A stretch of DNA of 64,000 bases from an uncultured Candidatus Saccharibacteria bacterium (lineage in GTDB: Bacteria; Patescibacteriota; CPR2; UBA1875; CAIMLA01), in contig CAZCRI010000001.1 of the NCBI GenBank assembly GCA_964501135.1, positions 64,393-128,392 on the forward strand, read 5' to 3'. Shown here in pieces: positions 35,687-62,831 of the stretch. Numbering within the stretch: position 1 is the first letter of the stretch; every line of letters begins with the position of its first letter. The notes under the pieces were generated by a model. The model searched no databases and was not told where the DNA came from. It saw only the letters and a program-made list of their open reading frames with translations. The translations under genes and the position numbers were made by a program.

Positions 35687-36196
35687 CTATTGCAGCCAGT
35701 CTACCGTGTAGGTCGTGTTGACGATACGGACAGTGTCGCCAGCTCGCTTGCCCATGAGAGCTTCTGCGAGCGGAGTCTCCTGCGCGAGAACCGTGATGGT
35801 AACCGGATCTGTCCCCGGGATCGGGACGTAGTCGATCGTCTTCCCGGTCTTGCCAGGAACAATGAAGGCCAGCACGTCTTTCTCTCGGCCAGTACTTGCA
35901 CTGAGCATAGCCAACGTATAGAACTGGACGGTATCGTGCTTGTTCTTGTGCCACCCTTCAGGCATGAGCGACATCTCGCCGAGCCCAGCCTGGAACTTGG
36001 CAACGGTGTCGCGTGCCGCCTGAGCCATAGCTTGCTGCTGGCTCCGGTTTGTGTCGCTTGCGGACTCCATCTTGCTGGGGTAGCCGGCGGCCTCCTTTTC
36101 GAAATAGCGGACCTGATCCTCTGCTTCTGCGACGAGCTCCTTGATCGCAACGAGTGCGAGATCAAAGATTGCTGCCTTGTCGAATTCCGGAGTCAT
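35687..36196 (-). CDS. GreA/GreB-family transcription elongation factor-like protein
   Basis: The C-terminal sequence PGTDPVTITVLAQETPLAEALMGKRAGDTVRI resembles the Gre FKBP-like C-domain. AGGAGG RBS before the ATG at 36196. The ORF is high-GC. Confidence 0.55.
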   Translation of the reverse strand: MTPEFDKAAIFDLALVAIKELVAEAEDQVRYFEKEAAGYPSKMESASDTNRSQQQAMAQAARDTVAKFQAGLGEMSLMPEGWHKNKHDTVQFYTLAMLSASTGREKDVLAFIVPGKTGKTIDYVPIPGTDPVTITVLAQETPLAEALMGKRAGDTVRIVNTTYTVDWLQ

Positions 36197-36370
36197 CTCC
36201 GAAACCTCCTGTCGGCTAGGTGATGGAAACAATGAACGATAAGCATTTTCACATAGATTTGAGTTTTTGTCAATGTTTATTTTTCTTCAGTTTTATTCCT
36301 TATACACTTTCTTTATATTCCCGTAGAATGCTTTCATGCTGAAGTAATAAGACTGAAGCTGCTCCTTGAA

Positions 36371-36378
36371 GGGGGGGG
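36371..36378. repeat. G8 homopolymer tract at the 5' end of the radical SAM gene
   Basis: GGGGGGGG immediately upstream of the candidate GTG start at 36387, inside the alternative TTG-initiated frame. Confidence 0.5.
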
Positions 36379-36386
36379 AAGTTAAG

Positions 36387-37349
36387 GTGAACACTGCCAA
36401 TGATTCACTCCGAGTTCGTGTTACACCGTATTGCAACCTGAATTGTGGTTTTTGCCACGAGGAAGGCGGCGATGCATCCTGCCAGGTCAGTCTCGACCAG
36501 ATTGTCGCGGCAACCGAGTTCGCTTGCAAGCACGGCTTCTGCAAGTTCCACCTGACAGGTGGAGAACCCACACTGCATCCTGGCATCATCGATATCGTTC
36601 GTATCATTACCGGTGCCGGGTACCCTTGTGGTATCACCACGAACGGGCAGTTCCAGCCGAAGCTCCTCTCGGAGCTGAGGGAGGCTGGAGTTACTAGCCT
36701 CAACTTCTCTGTTCATACAGTCGACGCTTCTGCCTGGGCTCAGGTCCAGCAGAGTACTGACATCAAGAAGGCGGAAATCCAGATAGCTCGTGCAATCACG
36801 AATATCCGGGAGTCTGTCGCACTTGGAATCAGGACGAAGGTCAATATCGTGGTCGGCGACGACCCCGAAATGGCCATCGGCGTCATTGAAGAACTGCGAG
36901 AGTCTGGCGTAGAATACAGACTTCTCAACGTTCTCGGCTCGAATAACTCGCTCATCAGCATCACCGACGTTCTCGGCCATTACGATGCCGAGATGGTCGA
37001 AGAGACGCGAGTTATGGGTTCGAGCCAGTACAGGGCAACCTATACCAGCACGGTCGGTAACCTTGTGGTGAAAGAAATCCACCAGCACAGGGAACTGACT
37101 GTCTGCAAGGGTTGTAAGGAGAACTGCCAGGAGGGCTTCTACGGTATCCGGATTATCCCGATGGATGACTTGCTTCACGCACGTCTTTGCGTTCATCGTA
37201 CTTCCGAGACTACCCTGATGCCCTTGGAGCAGTTCGAGACCAGCCCGCAGCTCGATGCCATCAAGGCAAGTGGCGGTCTCAACAACGAGCACAAGGAGGT
37301 GTACCATGGTAGCACCTACTTCTCCAGAGCATCCATTTGTGGTGCTTGA
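36387..37349 (+). CDS. Radical SAM enzyme of the MoaA/viperin superfamily, with a C-terminal Cys cluster
   Basis: CNLNCGFC (CxxxCxxC) motif. FHLTGGEPTLHP and ITTNGQ...SLNFSVHTVD are MoaA-like. The C-terminal sequence CKGCKENC...ARLC suggests an auxiliary Fe-S cluster. The start could be the TTG at 36366 or the GTG at 36387. Confidence 0.8.
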   Translation: MNTANDSLRVRVTPYCNLNCGFCHEEGGDASCQVSLDQIVAATEFACKHGFCKFHLTGGEPTLHPGIIDIVRIITGAGYPCGITTNGQFQPKLLSELREAGVTSLNFSVHTVDASAWAQVQQSTDIKKAEIQIARAITNIRESVALGIRTKVNIVVGDDPEMAIGVIEELRESGVEYRLLNVLGSNNSLISITDVLGHYDAEMVEETRVMGSSQYRATYTSTVGNLVVKEIHQHRELTVCKGCKENCQEGFYGIRIIPMDDLLHARLCVHRTSETTLMPLEQFETSPQLDAIKASGGLNNEHKEVYHGSTYFSRASICGA

Positions 37350-37866
37350 GTCGAGGGACTACTGCGGCAAGACAACGGTCAGCACAGAGCTGACTGCACT
37401 CCTCAGGGCTACCTTGGTCAAGACTCCAATGGAGCCCGTCGCACAGTTCAGGGAAACTTACGACTGTTGCGAGAACTACGACGCTCGGTTCCTGTACTAC
37501 TTGAGCACTCTCTGCTTGGCTTCCAAGGCCATCGCGGAGGCCCTCAAGGTTGGACCGGTCGTCTGCGACCGGTACATCCACTCGGCCGTGGTCTACCACC
37601 ACGTTCTCGGAGTGGACACCTCGATGGTCGATATCGAGAAACTGGGGTTGGTTGTCCCTACCCTCACGGTTTGCCTCACCGCTAACAACGAAGTTCTTGC
37701 AAAAAGGAAGCGGGAGCGGGGCGAGGTCAGGCGAGACAACATCGAGGGTACGGTTGGCTTGCTTGACCGCGTCGACCAGATGATGCTGTCTGAGATACCA
37801 ACCCATATCGACACCAGCTATACAACGCCCCTCGAGGCAGCTCGGCTCATCGCCGCCATGCTCTAG
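37306..37866 (+). CDS. Thymidylate-kinase-family (d)NMP kinase
   Basis: GGAGGTG RBS followed by an ATG. P-loop FVVLESRDYCGKTTV. The sequence VCDRYIHSAVVYHH is a DRY-type motif of the Tmk family. Confidence 0.6.
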   Translation: MVAPTSPEHPFVVLESRDYCGKTTVSTELTALLRATLVKTPMEPVAQFRETYDCCENYDARFLYYLSTLCLASKAIAEALKVGPVVCDRYIHSAVVYHHVLGVDTSMVDIEKLGLVVPTLTVCLTANNEVLAKRKRERGEVRRDNIEGTVGLLDRVDQMMLSEIPTHIDTSYTTPLEAARLIAAML

Positions 37867-37873
37867 GGCACAC

Positions 37874-37909
37874 AGGGCTTCGCCCGGAGAAGGACTCCGG
37901 TCGGAGCCC
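37874..37909 (+). terminator. GC-rich hairpin at the 3' edge of the high-GC island
   Basis: CCGGAGaaggaCTCCGG sits within the sequence GGGCTTCGCCCGGAG...CGGAGCCC. Confidence 0.4.
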
Positions 37910-37952
37910 TTCTTCATTTTACAAAGAAGTTTGTTTGTGGTAACTTTTCATT

Positions 37953-48662: not shown

Positions 48663-49394
48663 TTAGCTCGAAGGTGCCGGCTGCTTCTGCTCGCTCGCGA
48701 GCTTCTCGACATCAGTGACCAATCCCATGGCCACGAGATCGCGGAGAATTCGCTTGTGACCGCAGATCACTCCTTCGGGATTTACGATCCAGTCTTCACC
48801 GCGGTTGAAGAAGCCCCCGTTGATGTACTGGGGCATGTAGCGCCAGATAGGATCGTCCGGGAAGTACCGTGACATGTTCCGTGCGTGAGGAATGACCCGA
48901 TCAATGACGCCCTGGAGAGAGCCAGGGTACTTGACAGGAATCCACATCACGGCCAGGATCAGGGTGTGAGCTGCAATCCTGCGCCGCAGAGCGGCAGGCG
49001 GTTCCGCGCCGTTCTCGTCCAGAGGCGTGTTCAGGTATGCGGTGGACCGAACGGCGTGAAGGCCGGCTCGGTACAGATCTCCGTCGCCGTACTCATCATT
49101 GAGTCCTGAAACCGCGAGATATCGGCGCCAAGGCTCCCGGATAAGCCGGTCTTGCTTGATGGCTTCGAGACCAATCCGAATCTGTTCCGGATCTTCCTGG
49201 CAGTTGATCTCGAACCTGTTGCCAACCTCGGGGAACTCTGCGAAGAGTTCATCGACTTGGCCTCCTGAGAAGAGGCCGTTGACCGAGATTGCGATTGCTT
49301 TGGCGGCAATCTCCGCGGCCTTCTTGTCCGGTACGATATGCGGGTACGTGTGGAAGAAACGCTTCACGTTTCCTACTGCGTACAAAGTACTCAC
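48663..49394 (-). CDS. Hypothetical protein (high-GC island)
   Basis: 243-aa ORF with no recognised motif and strongly elevated G+C. Confidence 0.4.
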   Translation of the reverse strand: MSTLYAVGNVKRFFHTYPHIVPDKKAAEIAAKAIAISVNGLFSGGQVDELFAEFPEVGNRFEINCQEDPEQIRIGLEAIKQDRLIREPWRRYLAVSGLNDEYGDGDLYRAGLHAVRSTAYLNTPLDENGAEPPAALRRRIAAHTLILAVMWIPVKYPGSLQGVIDRVIPHARNMSRYFPDDPIWRYMPQYINGGFFNRGEDWIVNPEGVICGHKRILRDLVAMGLVTDVEKLASEQKQPAPSS

Positions 49395-50893: not shown

Positions 50894-51023
50894 TTGTATT
50901 ATAGCCCCGACAAAATACAGACCTGAAGGATAAACTACCGAATGGTAAATTATATGGCGTCTTCTATTTGGCGAAGCGCTTAGTACAGAGTTTATGGAAG
51001 TGTAAACAGGTCTAGAGCAAAGA

Positions 51024-52115
51024 CTATCTAGTATTATCAATTTCTTTCTTGGCTGTTTTTAGAAACTTTCCGAACTGTCGATCTTTCTCCCTTTTTTCTA
51101 CTTCGTTCATCTCATAGTACTCAGACTCCTTCTTTAGGGTAATGTAGTTGTTGTACTGCTCCGGGTTAATTTCTCCTTTTCCGAGTGCAGACAGTATTGT
51201 GCATCCTGGCTCATGCATATGAGTACAATTTCCAAATTTACACTCTTTCGATAGGGCGGTTATCACGGCAAAGGAATCATCTATGCCACTGCTTAGATCC
51301 GTGATTCCGACCTCTCGCATACCTGGATTGTCTATCACGATACCGCCGTTATCTAGTAAATACAGCTGTCTGTTTGTGGTGACGTGTTTCCCTCTGCCTG
51401 CCGCATCACTGATGGCGCCAGTCTTGATTTCGCTACTACCCAGAAGTTGGTTTATAATCGTGGACTTACCAACTCCGGATGAGCCAAGAAAACAATAGGT
51501 CTTCCCTCTGACGATATATTTCGTCAGTGCCTCGAGCCCCTCGTCCGAGACGGTGTTGGTTGCGATTATGTCGATATCACCGAGCCTATCCCGTATTTCC
51601 GCTAGTTTCTCTCCTAGCTCTTCGCTGGGGATTAAATCTACTTTGTTCAAGATTATTACCGGCTTTATCTTATGGTCTCTTACAATCGCGAGATATCTTT
51701 CAAAACGATTTAGGTTGTAGTCCCGATCAACTGATTCGACGATGAGTGCGACGTCAATGTTTGTCGCGATTATCTGGACAATATTCTTTTCGCCGGGTCT
51801 GTTCCTATCACTTCGTTTTCGCTCGATCGTAGTTGCTCTTGGCAAAAAGTTGTGGATTATCGCCCGTCCTTCCTCAAGCTCGGTGATAGCTACCCAGTCA
51901 CCGACAGCGGGGAAGTCTTTCCTAGAGGCAGCTTGTTGGATCTGTTTCCCCGTGACTCTAGCGAGAAATTCACCATTTTCACCAAGAACTTTATATAAGC
52001 CAGAATACTCAGATGTAACTCGGGCGATAGAGAAAGTATCAAGGCCTAATCTCTTGCGATTAGTCTCAAAGGAATCATTATATCCCAGGTCTTTTAGTTT
52101 TATCGTCATTTCCAT
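51024..52115 (-). CDS. rsgA: Ribosome small-subunit-dependent GTPase A
   Basis: Circularly permuted GTPase motifs, GSSGVGKSTIINQL, and the C-terminal zinc motif CKFGNCTHMHEPGC. Confidence 0.85.
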   Translation of the reverse strand: MEMTIKLKDLGYNDSFETNRKRLGLDTFSIARVTSEYSGLYKVLGENGEFLARVTGKQIQQAASRKDFPAVGDWVAITELEEGRAIIHNFLPRATTIERKRSDRNRPGEKNIVQIIATNIDVALIVESVDRDYNLNRFERYLAIVRDHKIKPVIILNKVDLIPSEELGEKLAEIRDRLGDIDIIATNTVSDEGLEALTKYIVRGKTYCFLGSSGVGKSTIINQLLGSSEIKTGAISDAAGRGKHVTTNRQLYLLDNGGIVIDNPGMREVGITDLSSGIDDSFAVITALSKECKFGNCTHMHEPGCTILSALGKGEINPEQYNNYITLKKESEYYEMNEVEKREKDRQFGKFLKTAKKEIDNTR

Positions 52116-52149
52116 ATCATTTCTCCGAAACTATTATACCCTAGTATTA

Positions 52150-52221
52150 ATCGTCAAAAACATAAGCTACCTTGCGGTAGCTTATAAACTGTTCTATTCG
52201 GCGAAGCAAAAGGCGCGGAGG
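52150..52221 (-). repeat. Intergenic module copy A (partial: hairpin plus the GTTCTATTCGGCGAAGC motif)
   Basis: AAGCTACCttgcGGTAGCTT hairpin and the conserved motif abutting the stop codon of the gene at 52222. Confidence 0.6.
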
Positions 52222-52590
52222 TTATATGTAGCGCTTTTTGTCGTGGACGCATAAAGTACCTTCTTCGTTGACCCACTTCTTCTCTTCCTTCTCTAGAAAT
52301 GCCTCGATTCCGTTGTCTCTGATAAACTCCAGGTTCTCTATTTCGCTCATTCCATATCTCTCTTGGTATCGTTCGTCCAGCTTTCGAATGCTTTCACAGG
52401 GGAATTTTTCACACTGAAAGCAGTATTCGCCGGTTCTTTTGGTGCACAGTTTTCGGCTACATTTTAAACACCTGCCGTTTACTTTTCTTCCAGAGAAGCA
52501 CCCAGGGCACTTGTTTTCAGCTCTCAAATGTAGCTGGCATAGACCGCAGTTCATGCCACAAGGAGCGATAAGCTCTTTTTTCATCTTCAT
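52222..52590 (-). CDS. DUF3795-like Cys-rich protein
   Basis: At least 12 Cys in CxxC-type pairs near the N-terminus (CGMNCGLC..CPGC..C..C). Confidence 0.45.
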   Translation of the reverse strand: MKMKKELIAPCGMNCGLCQLHLRAENKCPGCFSGRKVNGRCLKCSRKLCTKRTGEYCFQCEKFPCESIRKLDERYQERYGMSEIENLEFIRDNGIEAFLEKEEKKWVNEEGTLCVHDKKRYI

Positions 52591-52650
52591 GATTATATTA
52601 TAGCAAAACAGAATAGTGCTGTCGTAATTGCGAAACCATTTCTGGTTCTA

Positions 52651-52686
52651 GTGTTCTATTTGGCGAAGAAGTACTCTGCGCAGGAG
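52651..52686 (-). repeat. Intergenic module copy B (partial: GTTCTATTTGGCGAAG motif)
   Basis: Conserved motif immediately after the stop codon of the gene at 52687. Confidence 0.5.
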
Positions 52687-53082
52687 TCAGAGTGAGGTAA
52701 TTTGATTTATCAACCTCTTGTATTCATCTCTCATGTTCAGTTTTGAAATTTCGCAATCACCAAACCATCCGAAATCTGTCGATTCGTGATCAAGTTCAAT
52801 CTCTTCTAGTTGTGCCGAACAGCTATAAACCAGAACGATAAAGTGATACTCGGCAATATCGGTTTTCGAGACAAAAGAAAAGGTGCTTATTGGATTGCCG
52901 ACCGATACTTTTTCCGCTCCCAGTTCTTCCTTTAGCTCACGTTTCAAAGCTTCCTCTGGACTTTCCCCAAATTCTATCCTGCCGCCCGGTAGTTCCCAAA
53001 CATTATTATTGTCTTTGACTAATAATACCTTGCTGCCATTTCTGATAATCGCTTTAGTCGTAGTTCTCTGTAATTTTTTCAT
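52687..53082 (-). CDS. NUDIX hydrolase
   Basis: NUDIX box GGRIEFGESPEEALKRELKEELG. Confidence 0.8.
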   Translation of the reverse strand: MKKLQRTTTKAIIRNGSKVLLVKDNNNVWELPGGRIEFGESPEEALKRELKEELGAEKVSVGNPISTFSFVSKTDIAEYHFIVLVYSCSAQLEEIELDHESTDFGWFGDCEISKLNMRDEYKRLINQITSL

Positions 53083-53103
53083 AAATATTATTATATCAAA
53101 AAA

Positions 53104-53203
53104 CGTCTTAGCAGATAAAGTTTTCTACGTCATTAATAGAAATAAGCTACCTTGCGGCAGCTTATTTAGTAGGTTCTATTTGGCGAAGCGGGAGGCGCTG
53201 GAG
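53104..53203 (-). repeat. Intergenic module copy C (full length)
   Basis: GCTTAGCAG...TTTTCTACGTCATTAATAGAAATAAGCT-hairpin-AGCTTATTTAGTAGGTTCTATTTGGCGAAGCGGGAGGCGC. An extended -10 TGATATAAT lies 7 nt before the ATG of 52687-53082. Confidence 0.7.
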
Positions 53204-53692
53204 CTATTTTTTATTATTCATAATTTCTAAAAGCTCGGCTGCAGTTTCTTTTGGATTTTGTTCCGAATTATCAATAACGGTGCCGTATCCGGGATTGTTA
53301 ATCTTAATTTTATAGTGGTAATGGATTCTATCCACCTCTTTACTGTCAAGCTCTCGATTCCCCCTGTTTGTTATTACCTTTTCGAGTTTTGGGCTAAGAG
53401 TGAAGGCATGTATTTCCGTTCCTAAATTATCCAATTCAGATACAATTTTTTTATAGCTCTCCTTCGTCAGAGGATAGGGAATAATAACATTATAATTATT
53501 TTTTGCGAAAGATTTAATCACTTCAGCGCCGACCTTGTGCACCATCGGTATTGCCTTATCAATTGGTAGCCAATCAATAAAGTGTCTGATGCTATCAAAT
53601 TCAACGAGAGCAGTATCTGGAATCATTTTTTGAAGAATTTCAGATACAGTAGACTTGCCTGCATTTATTGATCCGTTTATAAAAATAATCAT
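53204..53692 (-). CDS. P-loop NTPase / small-molecule kinase-like protein (AAA_33-like)
   Basis: The N-terminal Walker A motif IFINGSINAGKSTV. 162 aa. Confidence 0.5.
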   Translation of the reverse strand: MIIFINGSINAGKSTVSEILQKMIPDTALVEFDSIRHFIDWLPIDKAIPMVHKVGAEVIKSFAKNNYNVIIPYPLTKESYKKIVSELDNLGTEIHAFTLSPKLEKVITNRGNRELDSKEVDRIHYHYKIKINNPGYGTVIDNSEQNPKETAAELLEIMNNKK

Positions 53693-53712
53693 ACGCTTAT
53701 TTTATCACAAAA

Positions 53713-53813
53713 AGCGCTTAGCAGGTTAACTGTTTTGCGTCATTAATAGAAATAAGCTACCCCAAGGTAGCTTATTTAGTATGTTCCATTTGGCGAGGCA
53801 CTCAGCGCGGGAA
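53713..53813 (-). repeat. Intergenic module copy D (full length)
   Basis: Hairpin variant AAGCTACCccaaGGTAGCTT, a perfect stem. Extended -10 TGATAAAAT. Confidence 0.7.
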
Positions 53814-54296
53814 CTAATTAACTTTAGATAAATATTTTTTTAATGCAGCAATCTTTTGATTATCAGCATCGCCCTTTCTCTCTTTTCGATAGTTATCTTT
53901 CAACGATGCTTCATACGCCCTTAAATATTGCGATGCATCTAAAACATAGAATCTTGCCCCTTGCTTGTCTACAGGGGTTAATTTTTCAATTGTCAGTCCT
54001 GAATGTTGTTTGGATTCTTCAAGAGAACCGAAAGCAATCCAGCCCTCAATTTCTTTATGAGAGAATTCATGCTCATGCTCATCATCCATTCTAAACCCCA
54101 TTGACTCGAGATACCCCTTAAAATCTAACCACCTATCTTTTAAATAAGTTTCGGGTATTAAATAATCTATGTCGTCTACAGGATTTAACGGCTCGATTAT
54201 TTGGTACAAACCCAAGGAGCCATATAGGACTGGGGTAATTCCCCATTTATTTAGGATCTTTGTAACTCTAATAAAATCATTGAACTTTTTTTGCAT
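53814..54296 (-). CDS. Nucleotidyltransferase-fold protein (Lnu/ANT-like minimal NTase)
   Basis: PVLYGSLGLY...DDIDYLIP matches the hG[GS]...DxD NTase motif. 160 aa. Confidence 0.45.
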   Translation of the reverse strand: MQKKFNDFIRVTKILNKWGITPVLYGSLGLYQIIEPLNPVDDIDYLIPETYLKDRWLDFKGYLESMGFRMDDEHEHEFSHKEIEGWIAFGSLEESKQHSGLTIEKLTPVDKQGARFYVLDASQYLRAYEASLKDNYRKERKGDADNQKIAALKKYLSKVN

Positions 54297-54316
54297 GTGT
54301 AAATCTTATCAAAAAA

Positions 54317-54420
54317 TGTGCTTAGCAGATAGCTAAAATTGCGTCATTAATATAAATAAACTACCTTGCGGCAGCTTATTAGACTTGTTCCATTTGGCGA
54401 ACCACTCAGCGCAGGAACCA
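54317..54420 (-). repeat. Intergenic module copy E (full length)
   Basis: Hairpin variant AAACTACCttgcGGCAGCTT. Extended -10 TGATAAGAT. Confidence 0.7.
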
Positions 54421-54585
54421 ACTATGAATATGAAAATATTATGAAAAGCGCCCCAACCAACTTGTGGGTGGAGCGCAGCCAGGACCAGGATGAAATCCTG
54501 CTCGAACTGACTTTGTACCATGTGAATTTAGGACCTTGGTACGAGATCCTGTCCGCTCAAATTTGAGCGCTTCTTGCTGCCCGAA

Positions 54586-54687
54586 CTATTTCTTCGGTTC
54601 GGGCGTCTTCGTGCCCGGCTCGGGCTTCTCCTTGACGGTGATCGCGGACACCTTCTGGGCGTCCAAGACCGCTTTGCACTTAGACAT
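54586..54687 (-). CDS. 33-aa Lys-rich peptide with a single Cys (candidate precursor peptide)
   Basis: GGAAGGAGGTG RBS 3 nt upstream of the ATG, which overlaps the stop of the YkgJ-like gene. Peptide MSKCKAVLDAQKVSAITVKEKPEPGTKTPEPKK. Confidence 0.35.
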   Translation of the reverse strand: MSKCKAVLDAQKVSAITVKEKPEPGTKTPEPKK

Positions 54688-55258
54688 GGTTGTCACCTCC
54701 TTCCCCAACTAGGATATCGATTGAGGCGATCGCCTCGAATGAGTTGGGACCGTCGGGGAAAGACGATATCTCGTCGATTTCCGCGTACTCATCGGTGAGA
54801 CTCCGGATCGTTCCCGGGGAAACGGAACGAAGAATCTCGATGACTGTGCGGAAGAAGGACATCCTCTTTTCGCCTTGAAGCTCTCGGGAGAACTGGCAGT
54901 CCTCGTGCAATACGAGCTGCACTATGCCTTCGTACATGGCGAACCCGACAGGGTACATCCGGCATACGAGAGGCCGAGAGTTGTAGATTGTACACAAGCC
55001 TTCGGCTCGTAGTCTGCAAGGTGGCTTTGGCTTGTCGATCAGGATGTGACCGTCGACTTCTTCGAAGGAGTGCAGGAAGTGCAGTCCTTTGTTGATCTCG
55101 ACTATCGGTACACCCAGCTCGTATAGAGATTCGGCTTCCTCTCCTAGAAGCCAGACGTAGCCTTCACAGTCGTGGTCTTTGCAGTCGGCACAAATCATGC
55201 CGATTGTCTCGTAGATACGCCCAAACGCGTCGTATAGCGTTCTTAAGTCCTTGTTCAA
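54680..55258 (-). CDS. YkgJ-family (UPF0153, CxxCxxCC-type) putative Fe-S/zinc cluster protein
   Basis: CADCKDHDC near the N-terminus. PPCRLRAEGLCTIYNSRPLVCRMYP matches the family signature C.IY..RP..CR.YP. AGGAGG RBS before the TTG start. Confidence 0.6.
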   Translation of the reverse strand: MNKDLRTLYDAFGRIYETIGMICADCKDHDCEGYVWLLGEEAESLYELGVPIVEINKGLHFLHSFEEVDGHILIDKPKPPCRLRAEGLCTIYNSRPLVCRMYPVGFAMYEGIVQLVLHEDCQFSRELQGEKRMSFFRTVIEILRSVSPGTIRSLTDEYAEIDEISSFPDGPNSFEAIASIDILVGEGGDNHV

Positions 55259-55260
55259 CT

Positions 55261-56172
55261 TCAGCCTCCTTTCAGAATCGGGCAGCGTGAGGTGTCGTTG
55301 AGGCAGATACTGATTCCCGAGGCGTTGTATACCGCGTAGCGGCAGGACCGGGGTATCTGCTGTGTAGTGTGGTAGAGCGTGTGGTCGTTCATAAAATCCT
55401 CATCGAGTAGCGCCCCGATCAAAGACTCGGGACTGTGCAGAGCAAGCTCTGCACAGGGGTATACCACCCCTCTGTAATCGATGTAGGCAGAACGGGTCGA
55501 GATCTCGCAGGAGCAATCGAGGGGACTGCTACCGAGCTCGAGGGTCGGATCCAACTGAGAGCGAATGATTCTCAGCTTTTCAGCTAGGTCCATTCCACCA
55601 AGTCCGAGGTAGCTATTCTTACTGGCCCTGCCTTCGCAGTTGATCTCATTGAAGTGGAAACTACCAACGCCCAACCCGATCAGCTCCAGGACTATTTCGT
55701 CCAGGCTTCTAAGGTTGAGTGAGTTGATAGTCAGATAGACGGTAACAGGTTTTCCGGTTTCGACTATCTTTGACAGGGTTGCAACAGTCTTGCGGAACGA
55801 TCCCGTTCCTCGAATCAGATCGTGAATACGTTCGGTTCCTTCGACACTGACTCCAATCTGGTCGATGAGACCTTCGTTGATGACTGAAGTCGTTGCCTCT
55901 TGGTAGGTCCCGTTGGTGATGATGCTGGTCGAGATACCGAGCGTTTTCGCTTGCCGTAGCAGGAGGTGAAGGTCCTTCCGGGTGAAAGGTTCCCCGCCCG
56001 TGATAAACACCCTCTGACATCCCAGCGAAGCAATCTTCCTCAGGATCTGAACAGACGCTTCGGTGCTTGTCTCACCGGTTTCTAGATCACCGATGATGCA
56101 GTGGGTGCATTGCAGGTTGCAGTTGCGGGTGATCTCCCAGTGCCAGTCTCGGAGTGTCGGGGGGTTATCCAT
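55261..56172 (-). CDS. Radical SAM / SPASM-domain enzyme (second of a pair)
   Basis: CNLQCTHC (CxxxCxxC), GGEP, and a C-terminal Cys-rich region (C..C..C...C) consistent with SPASM/twitch auxiliary clusters. Confidence 0.8.
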   Translation of the reverse strand: MDNPPTLRDWHWEITRNCNLQCTHCIIGDLETGETSTEASVQILRKIASLGCQRVFITGGEPFTRKDLHLLLRQAKTLGISTSIITNGTYQEATTSVINEGLIDQIGVSVEGTERIHDLIRGTGSFRKTVATLSKIVETGKPVTVYLTINSLNLRSLDEIVLELIGLGVGSFHFNEINCEGRASKNSYLGLGGMDLAEKLRIIRSQLDPTLELGSSPLDCSCEISTRSAYIDYRGVVYPCAELALHSPESLIGALLDEDFMNDHTLYHTTQQIPRSCRYAVYNASGISICLNDTSRCPILKGG

Positions 56173-57469
56173 GATCCGGCCCTGCGAAGTCGATCGCACC
56201 AACTTGTGCGAGCAGGGAGACGAGTCTCCTCATCTCGTTGGTTTCGACCCGTTTGGCGTTCAGCTCGATGAGCTCAGCCTCAGAGGTGATGCCGCCGAGA
56301 ATCTGTTTGAGGATGTGGATGCACAGGGCATCAATCTCGATCGTTTGATACCGGGTGACCAGGTAGGCTTCCTTATGGGCCGTGTTAATCCTGGCGTACG
56401 AGTTGGGTCGGAAAGACCGCATCTCGGACAGAAAGTCCGGCGATGTGGTCTTAGTGGGCAGCTCGGCGTTATTCGTGATAGTCAGCGCTTCGTTGCCCCT
56501 TACAGCGTAGTCTACGCTGTAGGTTTGCGCCGAGTTCGCGTCGACCTTGCACCCGCAAAGGCATTCGGTCAGGACGTCGCAACCGACGCACGGTCTCTCA
56601 ATCCATCCAAGATCTCTGAACTCCGAGAGTTCCGGATTGCTCCAGATGGTTTCGAAGTCCTCGGTCAGGATGTTGCCGTATACCCGTTCTGATTGGTTGC
56701 AGGTACGGACGTTGCCGTTGGGGTTGACGGCGGCGAAGGTGACTCCAGCGCCGCAGTCCGCGGTCATCTGCTCGGGGATCAGGCGATCGTCGAGACAGAA
56801 GGGAATTGCAGTACCCCAACCGACGGGGATGTTGAAGTCGTCGCGACCCTGGATCATCTGACCCAGCGCAATGCGGAACTGCTCGGTCGAGGGCTTCATC
56901 TGCGTAGAGCTTTGGCTTCCTAAGCCACCGTCTTCGTATCTGTCTACAAAGACGCTTTCCATGCCCATCTCCTTGGCCAGACGGATCAGATCGTACATCT
57001 GGTCGAAGTTCTGGGCCGTGAGGACCGGGATGCAGCGAACGTCGAATCCTCGCTCGACGTATTTCATGATCGAGCTCGTGGCCTGCTTGAAGCTCCCGGC
57101 CTTGTTCGTAAGGTAGTCGTGAGTATTCTCCATGCCATGGAGCGGTACGCCGATGCACGCGAGCTTGGTCGAGAGGCCATCGAGGTACACTTGGCCGTTC
57201 GTAACGATGGTCACGGATGACTGTGTAGACAGCAGCTCGATGTACTCGTTGAGCTTTACTGTCCCTAGGAGACTGGGTTCACCTCCGATGAGGTAGACGT
57301 GGGGGATCTTCGATGCGTGAACCCTGGCGACGATCTGGTCTATGATGGCCGGGTCGATCCTGCTGTTGCGGTTGGGGTTGTAGCAGAACTTGCACTGCTG
57401 GTTACACGCGTAGGTGGTTTCGATGTGAACGAGATGCGGAACACTCGGTGCGATAATCTGGCAGGGCAT
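56165..57469 (-). CDS. Radical SAM / SPASM-domain enzyme (first of a pair) with a ~100-aa C-terminal extension
   Basis: CNQQCKFC, GGEP, and the SPASM cysteines CGAG...C...PCVGCDVLTECLCGCK. The extra C-terminal alpha-helical-looking region could be an RRE-like domain. Confidence 0.8.
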   Translation of the reverse strand: MPCQIIAPSVPHLVHIETTYACNQQCKFCYNPNRNSRIDPAIIDQIVARVHASKIPHVYLIGGEPSLLGTVKLNEYIELLSTQSSVTIVTNGQVYLDGLSTKLACIGVPLHGMENTHDYLTNKAGSFKQATSSIMKYVERGFDVRCIPVLTAQNFDQMYDLIRLAKEMGMESVFVDRYEDGGLGSQSSTQMKPSTEQFRIALGQMIQGRDDFNIPVGWGTAIPFCLDDRLIPEQMTADCGAGVTFAAVNPNGNVRTCNQSERVYGNILTEDFETIWSNPELSEFRDLGWIERPCVGCDVLTECLCGCKVDANSAQTYSVDYAVRGNEALTITNNAELPTKTTSPDFLSEMRSFRPNSYARINTAHKEAYLVTRYQTIEIDALCIHILKQILGGITSEAELIELNAKRVETNEMRRLVSLLAQVGAIDFAGPDHG

Positions 57470-57474
57470 CGCGG

Positions 57475-57780
57475 TTACCTCCCGTTTCTCTTCATGACTT
57501 CAAGGATGGTGTCGAAGTTGTCGTTCTCCGCGGACTTACACCGCTTCACGGCACCACACTTGGTGCATTTGAAGGTAATGATGTAGCCCAGTCCTTTCGT
57601 CTCGATCGAGATGGGCTCCATGAGCCCCTGGCATTCTGACTGTCGATCTCCAGGATTGATATCCACGTGTTTGCTGTGAAGACACTCGGGGCAGTGGTTA
57701 GTATAACCATTGCCGACGGTTGTGTGTCCACAGTGTTCGCAGATAAAATCCTCGATGTTACGAGTAAATCGCTTACTCAT
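57475..57780 (-). CDS. RNHCP-domain zinc-ribbon protein
   Basis: CEHCGHTTVGNGYTNHCPEC matches the xNHCP motif between two CxxC pairs. A second knuckle is CTKCGAVKRC. AAAGGGAG RBS before the ATG at 57780. Confidence 0.55.
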   Translation of the reverse strand: MSKRFTRNIEDFICEHCGHTTVGNGYTNHCPECLHSKHVDINPGDRQSECQGLMEPISIETKGLGYIITFKCTKCGAVKRCKSAENDNFDTILEVMKRNGR

Positions 57781-57949
57781 CGAAGACACTCCCTTTCTGG
57801 GGTTTGGATAGTTTTCAAGGAACCGTTCTGTTAACAGGTTCTCTATGATATAGAGCACCAGTTAACCATGATTTATACCACTTACAGAGCGTTATGTCAA
57901 TCTAAATCAGGCAGTAAGCGCTGACGGAGATCGTTTGCTACAAGGTAAA

Positions 57950-57977
57950 AAAGACGGTATCTTTGATACCGTCTAGA
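57950..57977 (-). terminator. Rho-independent terminator after the GNAT gene
   Basis: GACGGTATCaaagaTACCGTC hairpin followed by a T-run on the minus strand. Confidence 0.6.
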
Positions 57978-57985
57978 AAGTCATA

Positions 57986-58444
57986 TTATCGACATTTGAT
58001 ATTTTTTACATACACCGCACAGGGATTTCCGGGACTCCATCCAGGGTAGGGTTCTATCACGTCTACTTTTACAAATCCATTCTTTTCATAAAAAGATCTA
58101 GTGCTTACATAGGGTTCATATTCAGCGCTCTCGTCGAGCGTTTTTACTTCGATATAGATTTTTTCTGAATATTCTTTTTCGATGTGCTCGAGTAGTTTAG
58201 TCCCAAGTCCGGAGCGTTGGCGGTCTCTTAATACTGCGAAGTGCTTAATCTCCACAGTTTCAGAGGACTTGTCTTCTAGGATCACGAAGGCTTGGACTCC
58301 GGCATCCTCTACCAAGTACGTCGGTAAACTTAATATATGTTTAGAAATCTCTGACAATTCTTTTACATCAAACCATTCCGGCAGTTCTTTTGCGATAGCA
58401 ATGCAGGAGTCGAAATCTTCTTTTCTTGCCTTTCTAATTTCCAT
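57986..58444 (-). CDS. GNAT family N-acetyltransferase
   Basis: QRSGLGTKLL acetyl-CoA-binding motif. Confidence 0.8.
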   Translation of the reverse strand: MEIRKARKEDFDSCIAIAKELPEWFDVKELSEISKHILSLPTYLVEDAGVQAFVILEDKSSETVEIKHFAVLRDRQRSGLGTKLLEHIEKEYSEKIYIEVKTLDESAEYEPYVSTRSFYEKNGFVKVDVIEPYPGWSPGNPCAVYVKNIKCR

Positions 58445-58465
58445 GTCTAAATGATACCACGAAAA

Positions 58466-58565
58466 TACTTAGCAGATTAATCGAATTGCGTCATTAATAT
58501 AATAAGCTGACCGAAGTCAGCTTATTAAGTATGTTCCATTTGGCGAGCCGGAGGGCGCCAAGGCC
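58466..58565 (-). repeat. Intergenic module copy F (full length)
   Basis: Hairpin variant AAGCTGACcgaaGTCAGCTT, with compensatory changes against copies C-E. Extended -10 TGGTATCAT. Confidence 0.7.
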
Positions 58566-58622
58566 ATAGTTTGAACTTAAATGAGACAAATGAGACACCT
58601 AGCAGGTAGTCTTTTAGTTGTT

Positions 58623-59162
58623 CTAAATGATACCCTGACTGGACAAGACGCCAAGTAGGCTCATGATAAATATCAAACAAATGCCAATGATTGCCAAGAC
58701 ATTCCATACTTTCTTTGGCTTCTTATACCAACAGAAGATTCCCGTAGAGAATAATGCTGAATAGATTAGCATTTCTGGAAGCCCAATTAGGTGAGCATGC
58801 CATGGGATTATAGTATAGAGAACCCCTTCAAATGAGCCAGGCCCAGGTAGTTGTGGCGCAAAGAGCGTAAACCCAACTATCAGCATAAATAAATACAGCC
58901 AACCGTTCTTCTTTTCTAGGAAAATAGAACGAAATGGGAAAAGAAATACTGACATAAATAATCCAAGTATAATTTGTAATGACGGCCCCATAGCCACAAT
59001 TGCGGAGTCAATGGGTCGCATTAGCGATGAGAGTACATCAGAAGAAAATAACTCTTTGTAGCCCATAAAGATAAGAGCAAAGATTCCTGCTACAAAATAC
59101 GTTATTGTATGCAGAGCAACGATACGCCAACTGAACTCTAGAAATTCCTTTTTATTTTTCAT
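58623..59162 (-). CDS. Polytopic membrane protein (hypothetical)
   Basis: 179 aa with 5-6 TM helices. AAGGAGG RBS. Confidence 0.4.
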   Translation of the reverse strand: MKNKKEFLEFSWRIVALHTITYFVAGIFALIFMGYKELFSSDVLSSLMRPIDSAIVAMGPSLQIILGLFMSVFLFPFRSIFLEKKNGWLYLFMLIVGFTLFAPQLPGPGSFEGVLYTIIPWHAHLIGLPEMLIYSALFSTGIFCWYKKPKKVWNVLAIIGICLIFIMSLLGVLSSQGII

Positions 59163-59197
59163 TGTTTCCTCCTTGTCAAGATAATCATAACATAAAG

Positions 59198-59300
59198 TGC
59201 TTAGCAGCTAGAGTATTTTGCGTCATTAATAGAAATAAGCTGACCGAAGTCAGCTTATTAAGTATGTTCTATTTAGCGAAGCGGGAGACGTCAAGACTGC
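59198..59300 (-). repeat. Intergenic module copy G (full length)
   Basis: Same hairpin variant as copy F. GCTTAGCAG and GCGTCATTAATAGAAATAAGCT are conserved. Confidence 0.7.
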
Positions 59301-59304
59301 CCAG

Positions 59305-60914: not shown

Positions 60915-61283
60915 GTGAGTTATCACCTGGAGATCGAGAGTCATGTCAGTGAGTCGGGGACGATTCATGAGGTGTGTCTCGCCGGGCTGTACAACAGCGC
61001 GGATATCGAGGACCTCCTACGGCTTCGGGATCGCTTGAACATGAGAGCCTCTGGTGACGTCATCATCGACGTTACGAAGGCCTACATTGACACTACCGCT
61101 GAGGGCGCTTTTGCCTCCATCGGTCGCGATCTCGCAAAGCACGGAAGGATGCTCCACCTGGTAGTCGGGGAGCGTGGCCGGCCCAACATGGCCGACATCA
61201 ACGCCCGCTTTCAGGGCATTTCGTTTCACAAGGACATGCGCTCGGCCATGGAATCGGCCGGCGCGGTCACGGTCGCGGCCTAG
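60915..61283 (+). CDS. STAS-domain-like protein (anti-sigma-factor antagonist-like); hypothetical
   Basis: ~120 aa with a pattern of alternating hydrophobic residues and the sequence DVTKAYIDTTAEGAF. The call is weak. High G+C. Confidence 0.35.
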   Translation: MSYHLEIESHVSESGTIHEVCLAGLYNSADIEDLLRLRDRLNMRASGDVIIDVTKAYIDTTAEGAFASIGRDLAKHGRMLHLVVGERGRPNMADINARFQGISFHKDMRSAMESAGAVTVAA

Positions 61284-61976: not shown

Positions 61977-62831
61977 TTACGGGGTGGGCGTTGTAGCCAC
62001 CGACCAGTGGTTCTGGTACTTCACCGGTATCTGGTAGGCCGCCTCGGGATAGTCGACTTGGATATGGAAGTCCGTTTCGCTTGCTTTCGCAGCCTCGCTG
62101 TTGTAGATCTCAGCGTTCAGGTCACGCTCCACGGCGAGCGAATGGACTTTGCTCCACACCAGTCTCCGCTGTTCGGCAATCAGCGCCGCCGGGATGGTAC
62201 TGCTGTAGGTCGAACCCTTGTCGAGGTCTGCAATCTCGCCATCCAGGTCGGACACCTTACGACGCATCTCGTTGAACCAGATGGCATCCTTGTCAAGCGC
62301 CGGGACGTAGATGGTTGTGAAGATATCTTGATCCATCTCGTCCATCCAGAAGAGTTTGTCTATAGCTCGCAGACGCGTCTTCGAGACCTCGATGCGAGGA
62401 TTGCGCTCGTCTTTGGAGTAGTAGACGGATGGCGAACCGCTGACTTCGACCGATCTGCCGTTGATATTGATAGTCGCCCACCGTTTATCCTCACTCACGC
62501 GCGAGGCCACGTAGTAGGGCTTTCCGTGGAGAGGCAGGAGTTTCTGGGTCGTTTTGATGTTTGGTATCGTGCATACGACCACGATGGCTGTGACAAACAG
62601 GGCGAGCATCAGAAAGATGGCAGAGCCACTCGCAGCCAGGATGACGTCTGACTTCAAGGTAGCTCGCGTCCAGTCAGGGTCACCCCTGTGCACGAAGTAT
62701 GCACGAGCCCCGCCAATAGCCGTGAGTAGTACCCAGAGAGCAAGCGCGACGTGAAGAGCGGTGATATGGATGCCAAGAATGTACACGGTGTATCCTTCCG
62801 CCGATGGATTTTGGGAAACGCGCACCAGCAT
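61977..62831 (-). CDS. Membrane protein (hypothetical, high-GC)
   Basis: 284-aa ORF with two TM helices near the N-terminus. Confidence 0.35.
   Translation of the reverse strand: MLVRVSQNPSAEGYTVYILGIHITALHVALALWVLLTAIGGARAYFVHRGDPDWTRATLKSDVILAASGSAIFLMLALFVTAIVVVCTIPNIKTTQKLLPLHGKPYYVASRVSEDKRWATININGRSVEVSGSPSVYYSKDERNPRIEVSKTRLRAIDKLFWMDEMDQDIFTTIYVPALDKDAIWFNEMRRKVSDLDGEIADLDKGSTYSSTIPAALIAEQRRLVWSKVHSLAVERDLNAEIYNSEAAKASETDFHIQVDYPEAAYQIPVKYQNHWSVATTPTP

Follow-up and report, generated by a model that had tools for sequence, protein, structure and literature searches.

Peptide maturases of the radical S-adenosylmethionine (SAM)/SPASM type, among them SkfB, SuiB, CteB, ChlB, PapB and QhpD, combine a CX3CX2C motif and a seven-Cys SPASM region with an extra small domain resembling the recognition element (RRE) of ribosomally synthesised peptides with post-translational modifications (RiPPs). 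The RRE, or PqqD-like element, is a winged helix of about 90 amino acids (aa) with three strands and three helices that binds the precursor as an added strand. The mycofactocin (MftA/B/C) and pyrroloquinoline quinone (PQQ; PqqA/D/E) pathways likewise join a small conserved peptide to a SPASM radical SAM enzyme and a PqqD-type element, and in the His-Xaa-Ser system (HxsA with HxsB/HxsC) and in SCIFF systems paired radical SAM enzymes stand beside a short peptide. Here we analyse a cassette of five genes within a 64,000-nucleotide stretch of DNA, hereafter the window, from an uncultured Candidatus Saccharibacteria bacterium (contig CAZCRI010000001.1). The cassette encodes two radical SAM enzymes (rSAM-A and rSAM-B), a YkgJ-like cysteine-cluster protein, an RNHCP zinc-ribbon protein and a peptide of 33 aa, and it is probably a self-contained operon that post-translationally modifies its own ribosomally made peptide. 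It appears to work like radical SAM/SPASM peptide maturation, yet it fails the tests for every named system that we tested.

The cassette and its conserved peptide

The block at 54586-57780 consists of five intact minus-strand open reading frames (ORFs), as read from the window sequence. Along that strand they encode the RNHCP protein (57475-57780, 101 aa), rSAM-A (56165-57469, 434 aa, with Radical_SAM, SPASM and a C-terminal RRE-like domain at about residues 350-430), rSAM-B (55261-56172, 303 aa from an ATG, with Radical_SAM and one predicted auxiliary cluster), the YkgJ-like core partner (54680-55258, 192 aa, TTG start) and the precursor peptide (54586-54687, 33 aa, MSKCKAVLDAQKVSAITVKEKPEPGTKTPEPKK). 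The ATG start of the RNHCP gene agrees with the N-termini of its homologues; an alternative GTG start would extend this ORF to 57858. The RNHCP and rSAM-A genes are separated by 5 nt, rSAM-A and rSAM-B overlap by 8 nt (ATGGATAA), rSAM-B and the YkgJ-like gene are separated by 2 nt, and the latter overlaps the peptide gene by 8 nt (ATGTCTAA), so that the five genes are translationally coupled, in keeping with the tight coupling and overlapping stops and starts described in an earlier note made from the sequence alone. That note had also pointed to the 33-aa ORF and its Shine-Dalgarno (SD) sequence; the SD (GGAAGGAGGTG) is present upstream, and conservation beside radical SAM genes identifies the ORF as a real gene.

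This conservation is extensive. A peptide of the MSKCK type adjoins the rSAM-A homologue in 50 of the 51 loci with enough sequence; the copy of locus L018 is frameshifted, locus L054 is undecided and five contigs are truncated. The presence of the small ORF in essentially every locus gives strong comparative support to the proposal, first made in the note, of a cassette for a RiPP or another peptide-derived product. The consensus is MSKCKAV[LM]D..K[VI]..[IL].[VI]K, followed by a variable tail; residues 1-19 are conserved, while beyond about residue 20 both sequence and length vary freely, giving totals of 21-56 aa. Among 51 distinct nucleotide versions, S2, K3, C4 and D9 show no variation, R is the sole substitute for K12 (48 K, 3 R), and positions 7, 8, 13, 16 and 18 are nearly always hydrophobic. 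The same versions use both TCN and AGY codons for Ser2, and their summed entropy at codon positions 1, 2 and 3 is 16.2, 11.3 and 29.3 bits, respectively. The invariant residues, the two Ser2 codon families and the third-position variation indicate that the peptide is under protein-level selection. Most loci have an SD sequence of the AAGGAGGTG type ahead of the start. Lys predominates in most tails, but those of Magasanikbacteria-type loci are rich in Ser, Gln and Pro, and those of a Nanoarchaeota locus (L019) and a Woesearchaeota locus (L028) are acidic.

The association was also recovered in reverse, from the degenerate DNA of MSKCKAVLD alone searched in metagenome contigs. This search gave 118 stretches, of which 117 were analysed; at least 99 of these 117 lie on contigs that carry rSAM, YkgJ-like or RNHCP genes, and most of the others are short contigs. 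Viral contigs had no match to the peptide DNA pattern and thus give no sign of phage carriage. The peptide matches none of the NCBIfam or Pfam peptide models, and a comparison with 1.84 billion representatives returned only two matches, which is no surprise given the shortness of the peptide.

A scan of one genome per species gave 58 loci. Locus counts here come from pattern-seeded scans and our own clustering of ORFs, and are lower bounds or approximations. By record title, the carriers belong mainly to the candidate phyla radiation (CPR)/Patescibacteria, with Saccharibacteria, Berkelbacteria, Nealsonbacteria, Staskawiczbacteria, Dojkabacteria, Magasanikbacteria, Taylorbacteria, Sungbacteria, Gracilibacteria, Gottesmanbacteria and Microgenomates, and others to the DPANN archaea, with Woesearchaeota, Nanoarchaeota and Pacearchaeota; a few loci have other labels, such as Firmicutes bacterium CAG:822 and Caldithrix sp. 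In the Woesearchaeota locus L028 (183-12747) the cassette sits between the split rpoA'/rpoA'' genes and EF-2, an arrangement that is an archaeal hallmark, and the distribution across two domains is therefore no binning artefact.

CPR bacteria and DPANN archaea alike keep an invariable core of peptide, rSAM-A and YkgJ-like protein, to which rSAM-B is usually added, as is RNHCP in bacteria. Among the loci retrieved through rSAM-A, the neighbourhood is conserved across genomes, with RNHCP, rSAM-A, rSAM-B, YkgJ-like protein and peptide as the dominant order in bacteria and peptide, rSAM-A, rSAM-B and YkgJ-like protein in archaea. The genes are further tied together by in-frame fusions, which join rSAM-B to the YkgJ-like protein in 53 loci, rSAM-A to rSAM-B in 9, rSAM-A to the YkgJ-like protein in 2 and RNHCP to rSAM-A in 2.

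A second precursor copy occurs in some loci (L030, L119, L128, L129, L135). In Magasanikbacteria-type clusters (L128, L129 and L135, also L069 and L117) the cassette is flanked by two precursor genes, the second of which follows a divergently transcribed B12-binding radical SAM gene beyond RNHCP. An orphan precursor gene (MSKCKAVLDGGKITKITVKK...) was found at 872-898 of the 7.9-kb contig L147, which carries no radical SAM gene; it adjoins an Amidohydro_2 gene, and its other neighbours encode an aminotransferase, a Glu/Leu dehydrogenase, a Trp/Tyr-tRNA synthetase and a Peptidase_S51.

The enzymes compared with described maturation systems

The description of the first radical SAM enzyme as carrying a SPASM Cys cluster holds. 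rSAM-A matches PF04055, the superfamily with a CX3CX2C cluster motif in a partial TIM barrel, at E=8.4e-14 with CNQQCKFC, its CX3CX2C motif being invariant in the orthologues, and PF13186 (SPASM; E=3e-8, 34.3 bits with a cut-off of 21.5); in the seven-Cys motif, which in SPASM proteins (PF13186/TIGR04085) binds two auxiliary 4Fe-4S clusters, C239, C257, C294, C297, C303 and C307 never vary and C305 reaches at least 90% conservation. There are 413 database homologues at E<=1e-10; the best 120 of them have identities of 52-100%, and nearly all of these align across more than 90% of rSAM-A, its C-terminal tail included. In an AlphaFold2 model (pLDDT 87.4), residues from about 350 to 430 form a separate domain of four short strands (352-378) followed by three helices (381-391, 397-403 and 410-422) with pLDDT above 90. 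The nearest folds to the model are SkfB, SuiB, anSME, ChlB, CteB and PqqE. The tail of the window protein has no Pfam match and nothing relevant in NCBIfam; among tails of orthologues, PqqD (PF05402) is the Pfam family with the most matches, tied with DUF7020 (4 of 23 tails, weak, best E=0.013). The strand-then-helix topology is like that of a PqqD-like element, and rSAM-A models as a RiPP-type maturase with a C-terminal domain resembling a peptide-recognition element.

For rSAM-B, the earlier description as a second radical SAM/SPASM enzyme stands in its first half: PF04055 matches (E=1.5e-21) with CNLQCTHC, a motif invariant in the orthologues, but the Pfam search gave no SPASM match. Conservation in 47-48 of 48 orthologues extends to the CX3CX2C motif and to no more than four Cys of the C-terminal part (C222, C240, C277 and C297); since four suffice for one auxiliary cluster, one is predicted. 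rSAM-B is missing from about ten loci, which fall on several branches of a rough neighbour-joining tree of rSAM-A. Ala6 of the peptide is kept in 39 of the 39 loci with rSAM-B and in 3 of 10 without it, where P, S, G or T replaces it (Fisher p=1.4e-6, uncorrected for phylogeny). This pattern in the sequences points to Ala6/Val7 as a possible site or recognition point of rSAM-B.

The hallmarks of YkgJ/UPF0153 (PF03692) are an N-terminal CxxCxxCC and a C-terminal C...RPxxCRxYP. The cassette protein matches PF03692 only over the C-terminal motif, at 19.5 bits (E=0.0016) with a cut-off of 23, and its N-terminal motif is CxxCxxxxC instead; a precomputed PF03692 match exists for 5 of 63 homologues. 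Seven Cys are invariant among 34 orthologues. The proposed membership in the YkgJ family is distant and under the Pfam threshold, and the protein is best described as a distant relative of YkgJ/UPF0153.

The RNHCP assignment, including CxxC...NHCPEC, was confirmed (PF12647, 91.7 bits with a cut-off of 24; CEHC...TNHCPEC present). Orthologues share seven invariant Cys and the motif GYTNHCPxCLxSKHVDxNPGDR, of which N28, H29 and C30 never vary and P31 reaches at least 90% conservation. In most bacterial loci the gene stands upstream of rSAM-A, and the main clade of DPANN archaea lacks it; with more than 3000 homologues the family outnumbers the cassette, occurring also alone or with a different radical SAM enzyme. 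Because it is missing in archaea and occurs elsewhere, RNHCP counts as an accessory in the bacterial versions and not as the substrate or a defining component. The co-occurrence with the radical SAM pair expected of both partners thus holds for the YkgJ-like protein and breaks down for RNHCP in archaea, and the suggestion that the substrate might lie elsewhere, or be RNHCP itself, finds no support, since the peptide is universal. In locus L063 (6001-12262), RNHCP belongs to a different operon, with a GNAT gene before it and a 481-aa radical SAM/SPASM gene after it, continuing with genes for an MR_MLE enolase-family protein, an M20 peptidase, an ATP-grasp-like protein and an Asp/Glu racemase; it may therefore be that RNHCP serves several radical SAM systems as a partner.

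Compared with the described systems, the closest likeness is to SkfB, SuiB, CteB and ChlB, whose structures match rSAM-A best and with which the cassette shares a peptide substrate encoded in the same operon, in addition to the domain set named at the outset. The invariant Cys, with an invariant Asp five residues on, recalls the Cys-to-Asp thioethers of PapB and QhpD. In SkfB/SuiB-type maturases, however, the RRE is N-terminal, whereas the RRE-like domain of rSAM-A is C-terminal, and the conserved and presumably modified region of the cassette peptide is its extreme N-terminus, with the variable part after it. The sacti- and ranthipeptide systems differ in that the cassette has one Cys, an obligate YkgJ-like partner, a second radical SAM enzyme and RNHCP. 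The precursors of SCIFF, sactipeptides and ranthipeptides have several core Cys (six in SCIFF, or repeats of the CxxxD/E type), whereas the conserved part of every orthologue of our peptide holds a single Cys, which bears out the earlier remark that a one-Cys peptide resembles neither SCIFF nor sactipeptide precursors.

Like mycofactocin and PQQ, the cassette is without an exporter, and its highly conserved residues are presumed to be modified. Unlike theirs, its peptide has neither a C-terminal Gly-Val-Tyr nor a Glu-X3-Tyr motif, the end presumed to be modified being N-terminal, and no MftD/E/F or PqqB/C homologues were found. rSAM-A also falls under the cut-offs of these families (MftC 265 bits, PqqE 381 bits): its best NCBIfam match is MftC at 67.6 bits, and HxsC, among its top matches, scores 63.8 with a cut-off of 268, which likewise separates it from the His-Xaa-Ser system, as does a peptide with neither His-Xaa-Ser repeats nor the six-Cys motif of SCIFF. 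The best match of rSAM-B is StsB, at 103.7 bits with a cut-off of 625. No curated NCBIfam cut-off was reached among MftC, PqqE, HxsC, anSME, PapB, AlbA, SkfB, StsB, NirJ/AhbD, DynA and WgkB, all scores lying far under it. Bottromycin offers a likeness of logic only: the core is N-terminal there too, followed by a C-terminal recognition or disposable part, and other cassette loci, though not that of the window, carry a B12-dependent radical SAM enzyme, a SAM methyltransferase and an amidohydrolase, the kinds of enzyme by which C-methylation, O-methylation and removal of the follower are carried out in bottromycin pathways; but the cassette has no YcaO and its core enzymes differ.

We considered and rejected an anaerobic sulfatase maturase, with TIGR03942 at 36.6 bits against a cut-off of 349 and no sulfatase in any neighbourhood examined, the earlier note having named such an identity as one that would refute its reading, and scores and neighbourhoods ruled out a haem/d1 enzyme as well. 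The cassette departs from known systems in where its RRE-like domain sits, in a core that is N-terminal, in having one Cys only, in its obligate YkgJ-like partner and its accessory RNHCP, and in its host range. Literature searches on RNHCP, MSKCK, YkgJ with radical SAM, and CPR/DPANN RiPPs found nothing relevant within their incomplete coverage, and with no NCBIfam equivalog reached either, the combination of RNHCP and YkgJ partners does appear to be undescribed.

Possible transfer and functions of the cassette

In 400-nt segments, G+C is 0.51-0.585 over the cassette (0.55 overall) versus 0.35-0.42 on both sides, so the excess of about 15 points over flanking genes given in the note is correct locally. 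The background of the window is 0.44-0.48 (about 0.46), which does not fit the low-GC genome assumed there; the cassette stands about 9 points above it, and its immediate neighbours are unusually AT-rich themselves. The G+C content at third codon positions (GC3) is 0.62-0.75 for the cassette, 1.7 to 3.1 standard deviations above the mean of the remaining 61 long ORFs in the window (0.468 +/- 0.091). Since the excess sits at third positions, a foreign origin of the cassette is plausible, rather than an odd amino-acid content.

The nearest relative found, locus L067 (rSAM-A 88% identical), has in common with the window (58474-54441) about 4.07 kb without interruption, at a nucleotide identity of 80%. 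This block takes in the GNAT gene, which is AT-rich, the cassette, which is GC-rich, and the 3' region as far as the terminator. Homology stops at 54441 and 58474, and the neighbours beyond differ; the ends of the block in the window coincide with two copies of a 110-nt intergenic module. L067 has the same contrast, with G+C of 0.36 in the GNAT gene and 0.48-0.54 in the cassette genes, so the contrast, GNAT included, is older than the split between the two. The inference of horizontal transfer from base composition is accordingly upheld in part: GC3 makes a foreign origin plausible, but the block includes an AT-rich gene. Elsewhere, cassette G+C exceeds that of the flanks by at least 5 points in about half of 54 other loci and is poorer in some, a recurrent discordance that fits repeated transfer of the cassette.

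The genes that recur beside the cassette bear on its function. The GNAT family of the window adjoins it in nine loci of different lineages (the window, L011, L013, L019, L036, L067, L079, L127 and L139), of which L019 is archaeal, and lies directly upstream of RNHCP in L011, L013, L067 and the window; this GNAT may be an accessory tailoring, immunity or self-protection enzyme. Accessory genes of other loci encode Amidohydro_2 (32 loci), a B12-binding radical SAM enzyme nearest to ApyD and RiPP C-methyltransferases (23), a third SPASM radical SAM enzyme (19), a pyridoxal phosphate (PLP)-fold protein (18), a 254-aa methyltransferase nearest to the daptide methyltransferase (18) and Peptidase_S51 (6). 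None of these six is present in the window, and together they fit RiPP-type tailoring.

A mechanism can be proposed from these comparisons. The amphipathic, strand-like segment K12-K19 (KVxxIxVK), with its alternating hydrophobic and polar residues, would dock as a strand on the C-terminal RRE-like domain of rSAM-A; the recognition sequence would thus come behind the core, as a follower. rSAM-A would then act by 5'-deoxyadenosyl radical chemistry, aided by its SPASM auxiliary clusters, on the N-terminal core S2-K3-C4-K5-A6-V7-L8-D9. The likeliest reaction would join the thiol of the single invariant Cys4 to a carbon of another core residue, for which the invariant Asp9 is the obvious candidate acceptor; judged by the sactipeptide, ranthipeptide and QhpD enzymes, the guess that asks least is a Cys4-to-Asp9 thioether. 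rSAM-B, with the often fused YkgJ-like metal-cluster protein, might perform a second modification near Ala6/Val7. RNHCP could be a rubredoxin-like zinc or iron ribbon that aids the bacterial enzymes, for example as electron donor or adaptor, and the variable tail would stay outside the product.

Several points weigh against a self-contained operon that works in this way. All of its chemistry is inferred, and the roles of the YkgJ-like and RNHCP proteins are guesses. The RRE assignment is drawn from predicted topology and sub-threshold PqqD matches; profile searches of the PDB gave only a chance uL23 match for the rSAM-A tail, chance matches and no solved-structure relative for the YkgJ-like protein, and only weak Sgf11 and rubrerythrin zinc-knuckle matches, with no solved relative, for RNHCP. 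Shared ancestry may inflate the association between Ala6 and rSAM-B. Few known systems place the recognition sequence C-terminal to the core, and the core is conserved far above what is typical of antimicrobial RiPPs. The operon has no protease, transporter or immunity gene, and no exporter, leader peptidase or recognised immunity gene is conserved in any locus examined. With no exporter or leader protease and a core identical across domains, a conserved intracellular or cell-surface product is likelier than a fast-evolving toxin, and we lean towards such a molecule, although this is the weakest part of the argument.

The absence of export genes, together with a core that is essentially the same in Bacteria and Archaea, unlike those of diversifying toxins, also makes it rather doubtful that the product is a secreted or surface bioactive RiPP, either a bacteriocin or an episymbiont host-interaction factor, whose Lys-rich tail targets membranes while the GNAT enzyme self-protects. 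Most tails are indeed cationic, the fold of rSAM-A is that of RiPP maturases, precursors are duplicated in some loci, the distribution is patchy and horizontally transferred with G+C often at odds with the flanks, and GNAT, Peptidase_S51 and Peptidase_S66 genes recur nearby; yet tail composition is unconserved, as the acidic and Ser/Gln/Pro-rich versions show. The extreme conservation of the modified region across domains and the lack of a transporter would agree with a peptide that serves, as in PQQ and mycofactocin, as the scaffold of a cofactor or small molecule freed by a hydrolase encoded elsewhere in the genome. The recurrence of Amidohydro_2, Peptidase_S51 and the PLP-fold enzyme, the metabolically reduced symbiotic hosts, and MftC as the best NCBIfam match of both rSAM-A and the third radical SAM enzyme are in line with it. 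We regard this scaffold role as unlikely to a similar degree, given that the window cassette has no hydrolase, that a patchy distribution is odd for a needed cofactor, that no candidate cofactor-dependent enzyme is conserved nearby and that all MftC and PqqE scores are far under the family cut-offs.

That the radical SAM enzymes act on another target, such as RNHCP, another protein, RNA or a metabolite, with the small ORF as a co-conserved subunit, chaperone or regulatory peptide, is improbable. The evidence for modification of the peptide is indirect, the SPASM group also includes protein maturases (anSME) and enzymes of cofactor synthesis (NirJ, AhbD), families that both radical SAM enzymes match weakly, and RNHCP is fused to rSAM-A in two loci. 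RNHCP, however, is often stand-alone and missing from archaeal cassettes, the peptide being the only partner present everywhere; rSAM-A has the extra RRE-like domain, precursor duplications and a hypervariable tail fit a substrate, and no sulfatase or haem/d1 genes lie nearby in the loci examined. The deviating GC3 and the mosaic of accessory genes split by repeats around the cassette could suggest a recent, decaying or non-functional insertion in which the small ORF is a chance reading frame. With five intact ORFs, all catalytic Cys conserved, and promoter, SD sequences and terminator in place, this explanation is very hard to sustain, and the 80%-identity block in L067 and a peptide ORF conserved across two domains effectively refute it.

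Returning to an operon that modifies its own peptide, we offer one broader and still tentative proposal: the cassette may represent an unrecognised class of radical SAM peptide systems, in which the peptide has SKCKAVLD as its N-terminal core and a follower at its C-terminus, and in which the obligate partner, a YkgJ-like metal-cluster protein, is often fused to rSAM-B. Its one invariant product would be shared horizontally between CPR and DPANN and would meet a need that ultra-small episymbionts have in common, for instance as a cofactor derived from the peptide or as a conserved host-interaction molecule. CPR bacteria and DPANN archaea account for a large share of microbial diversity, with tiny genomes and almost no known specialised biosynthesis. 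If such organisms spend about 3 kb on modifying a 20-residue sequence identical across two domains, the resulting molecule would be of general importance to their lifestyle. The cassette also gives enzymologists a radical SAM pair with a very simple, one-Cys substrate and an uncharacterised class of partners (YkgJ/UPF0153, RNHCP). To our knowledge, neither YkgJ/UPF0153 nor RNHCP has a solved structure or an established function, and a functional result on the cassette would provide the first functional context for these two widespread domains.

Expression signals, intergenic module and other features of the window

A near-consensus candidate promoter for the cassette (TTGACA, 17 nt, TATAAA; 57872-57900, minus strand) was read from the sequence upstream of RNHCP; an automated promoter scan left it out because its -10 element ends in A. 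Downstream of the peptide gene, a structured 3' untranslated region (54441-54585, minus strand; fold z-score -3.05) ends in an intrinsic terminator, with a hairpin at 54448-54476 followed by a U-tract. Three hairpins, the last of which is the terminator, are kept in this region and at about 5230-5396 of L067, and by eye some stem changes between the two look compensatory (CGCTCA/TGAGCG versus CACTCA/TGAGTG). The GNAT acetyltransferase gene (57986-58444, minus strand, identified by a Pfam match) has its own terminator at 57952-57974. As the earlier note had stated, the cassette lies between this gene and a copy of the intergenic module.

The module is about 110 nt long and occurs in eight copies of the same orientation, at about 50930, 52162 and 52651 and at 53099-53209, 53709-53819, 54313-54423, 58468-58562 and 59192-59302; within the window it is confined to this 8.4-kb stretch (50930-59302). 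Sequence comparison places the copy at 54313-54423 at the downstream boundary of the block, and the one at 58468-58562 bounds it upstream of GNAT, where homology to L067 ends. Each copy has a hairpin, AATAAGCTRCC-NNNN-GGYAGCTTATT, and a box, GTTCTATTTGGCGAAG, and most lie just 3' of a minus-strand gene. The neighbours concerned are the genes for DUF1801, RsgA, DUF3795, NUDIX, a CPT-like kinase and an unknown 160-aa protein, the cassette block, and the genes for a membrane protein and for a protein of 257 aa. Rfam has no match to the module, which is absent from L067 and every other fetched locus. An integron-like array was considered and not adopted, with no integrase among the ORFs scanned at 48.7-63.6 kb and a housekeeping-type RsgA inside the array; the module looks like a terminator-bearing intergenic repeat.

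Other parts of the window also stand out in composition. A second GC3-rich island (35687-37917, GC3 0.57-0.69) contains a radical SAM gene (36366-37349) nearest to MoaA (108 bits, cut-off 325) and, after it, a dTMP-kinase-like gene (37255-37866). Prokaryotic viperin loci come to mind when a radical SAM enzyme is paired with a nucleotide kinase, although the viperin model scores only 50 bits with a cut-off of 180. The ORFs at 48663-49394, 60915-61283 and 61977-62831 have GC3 values of 0.69-0.75 and no Pfam match, and this end of the window looks compositionally mosaic.

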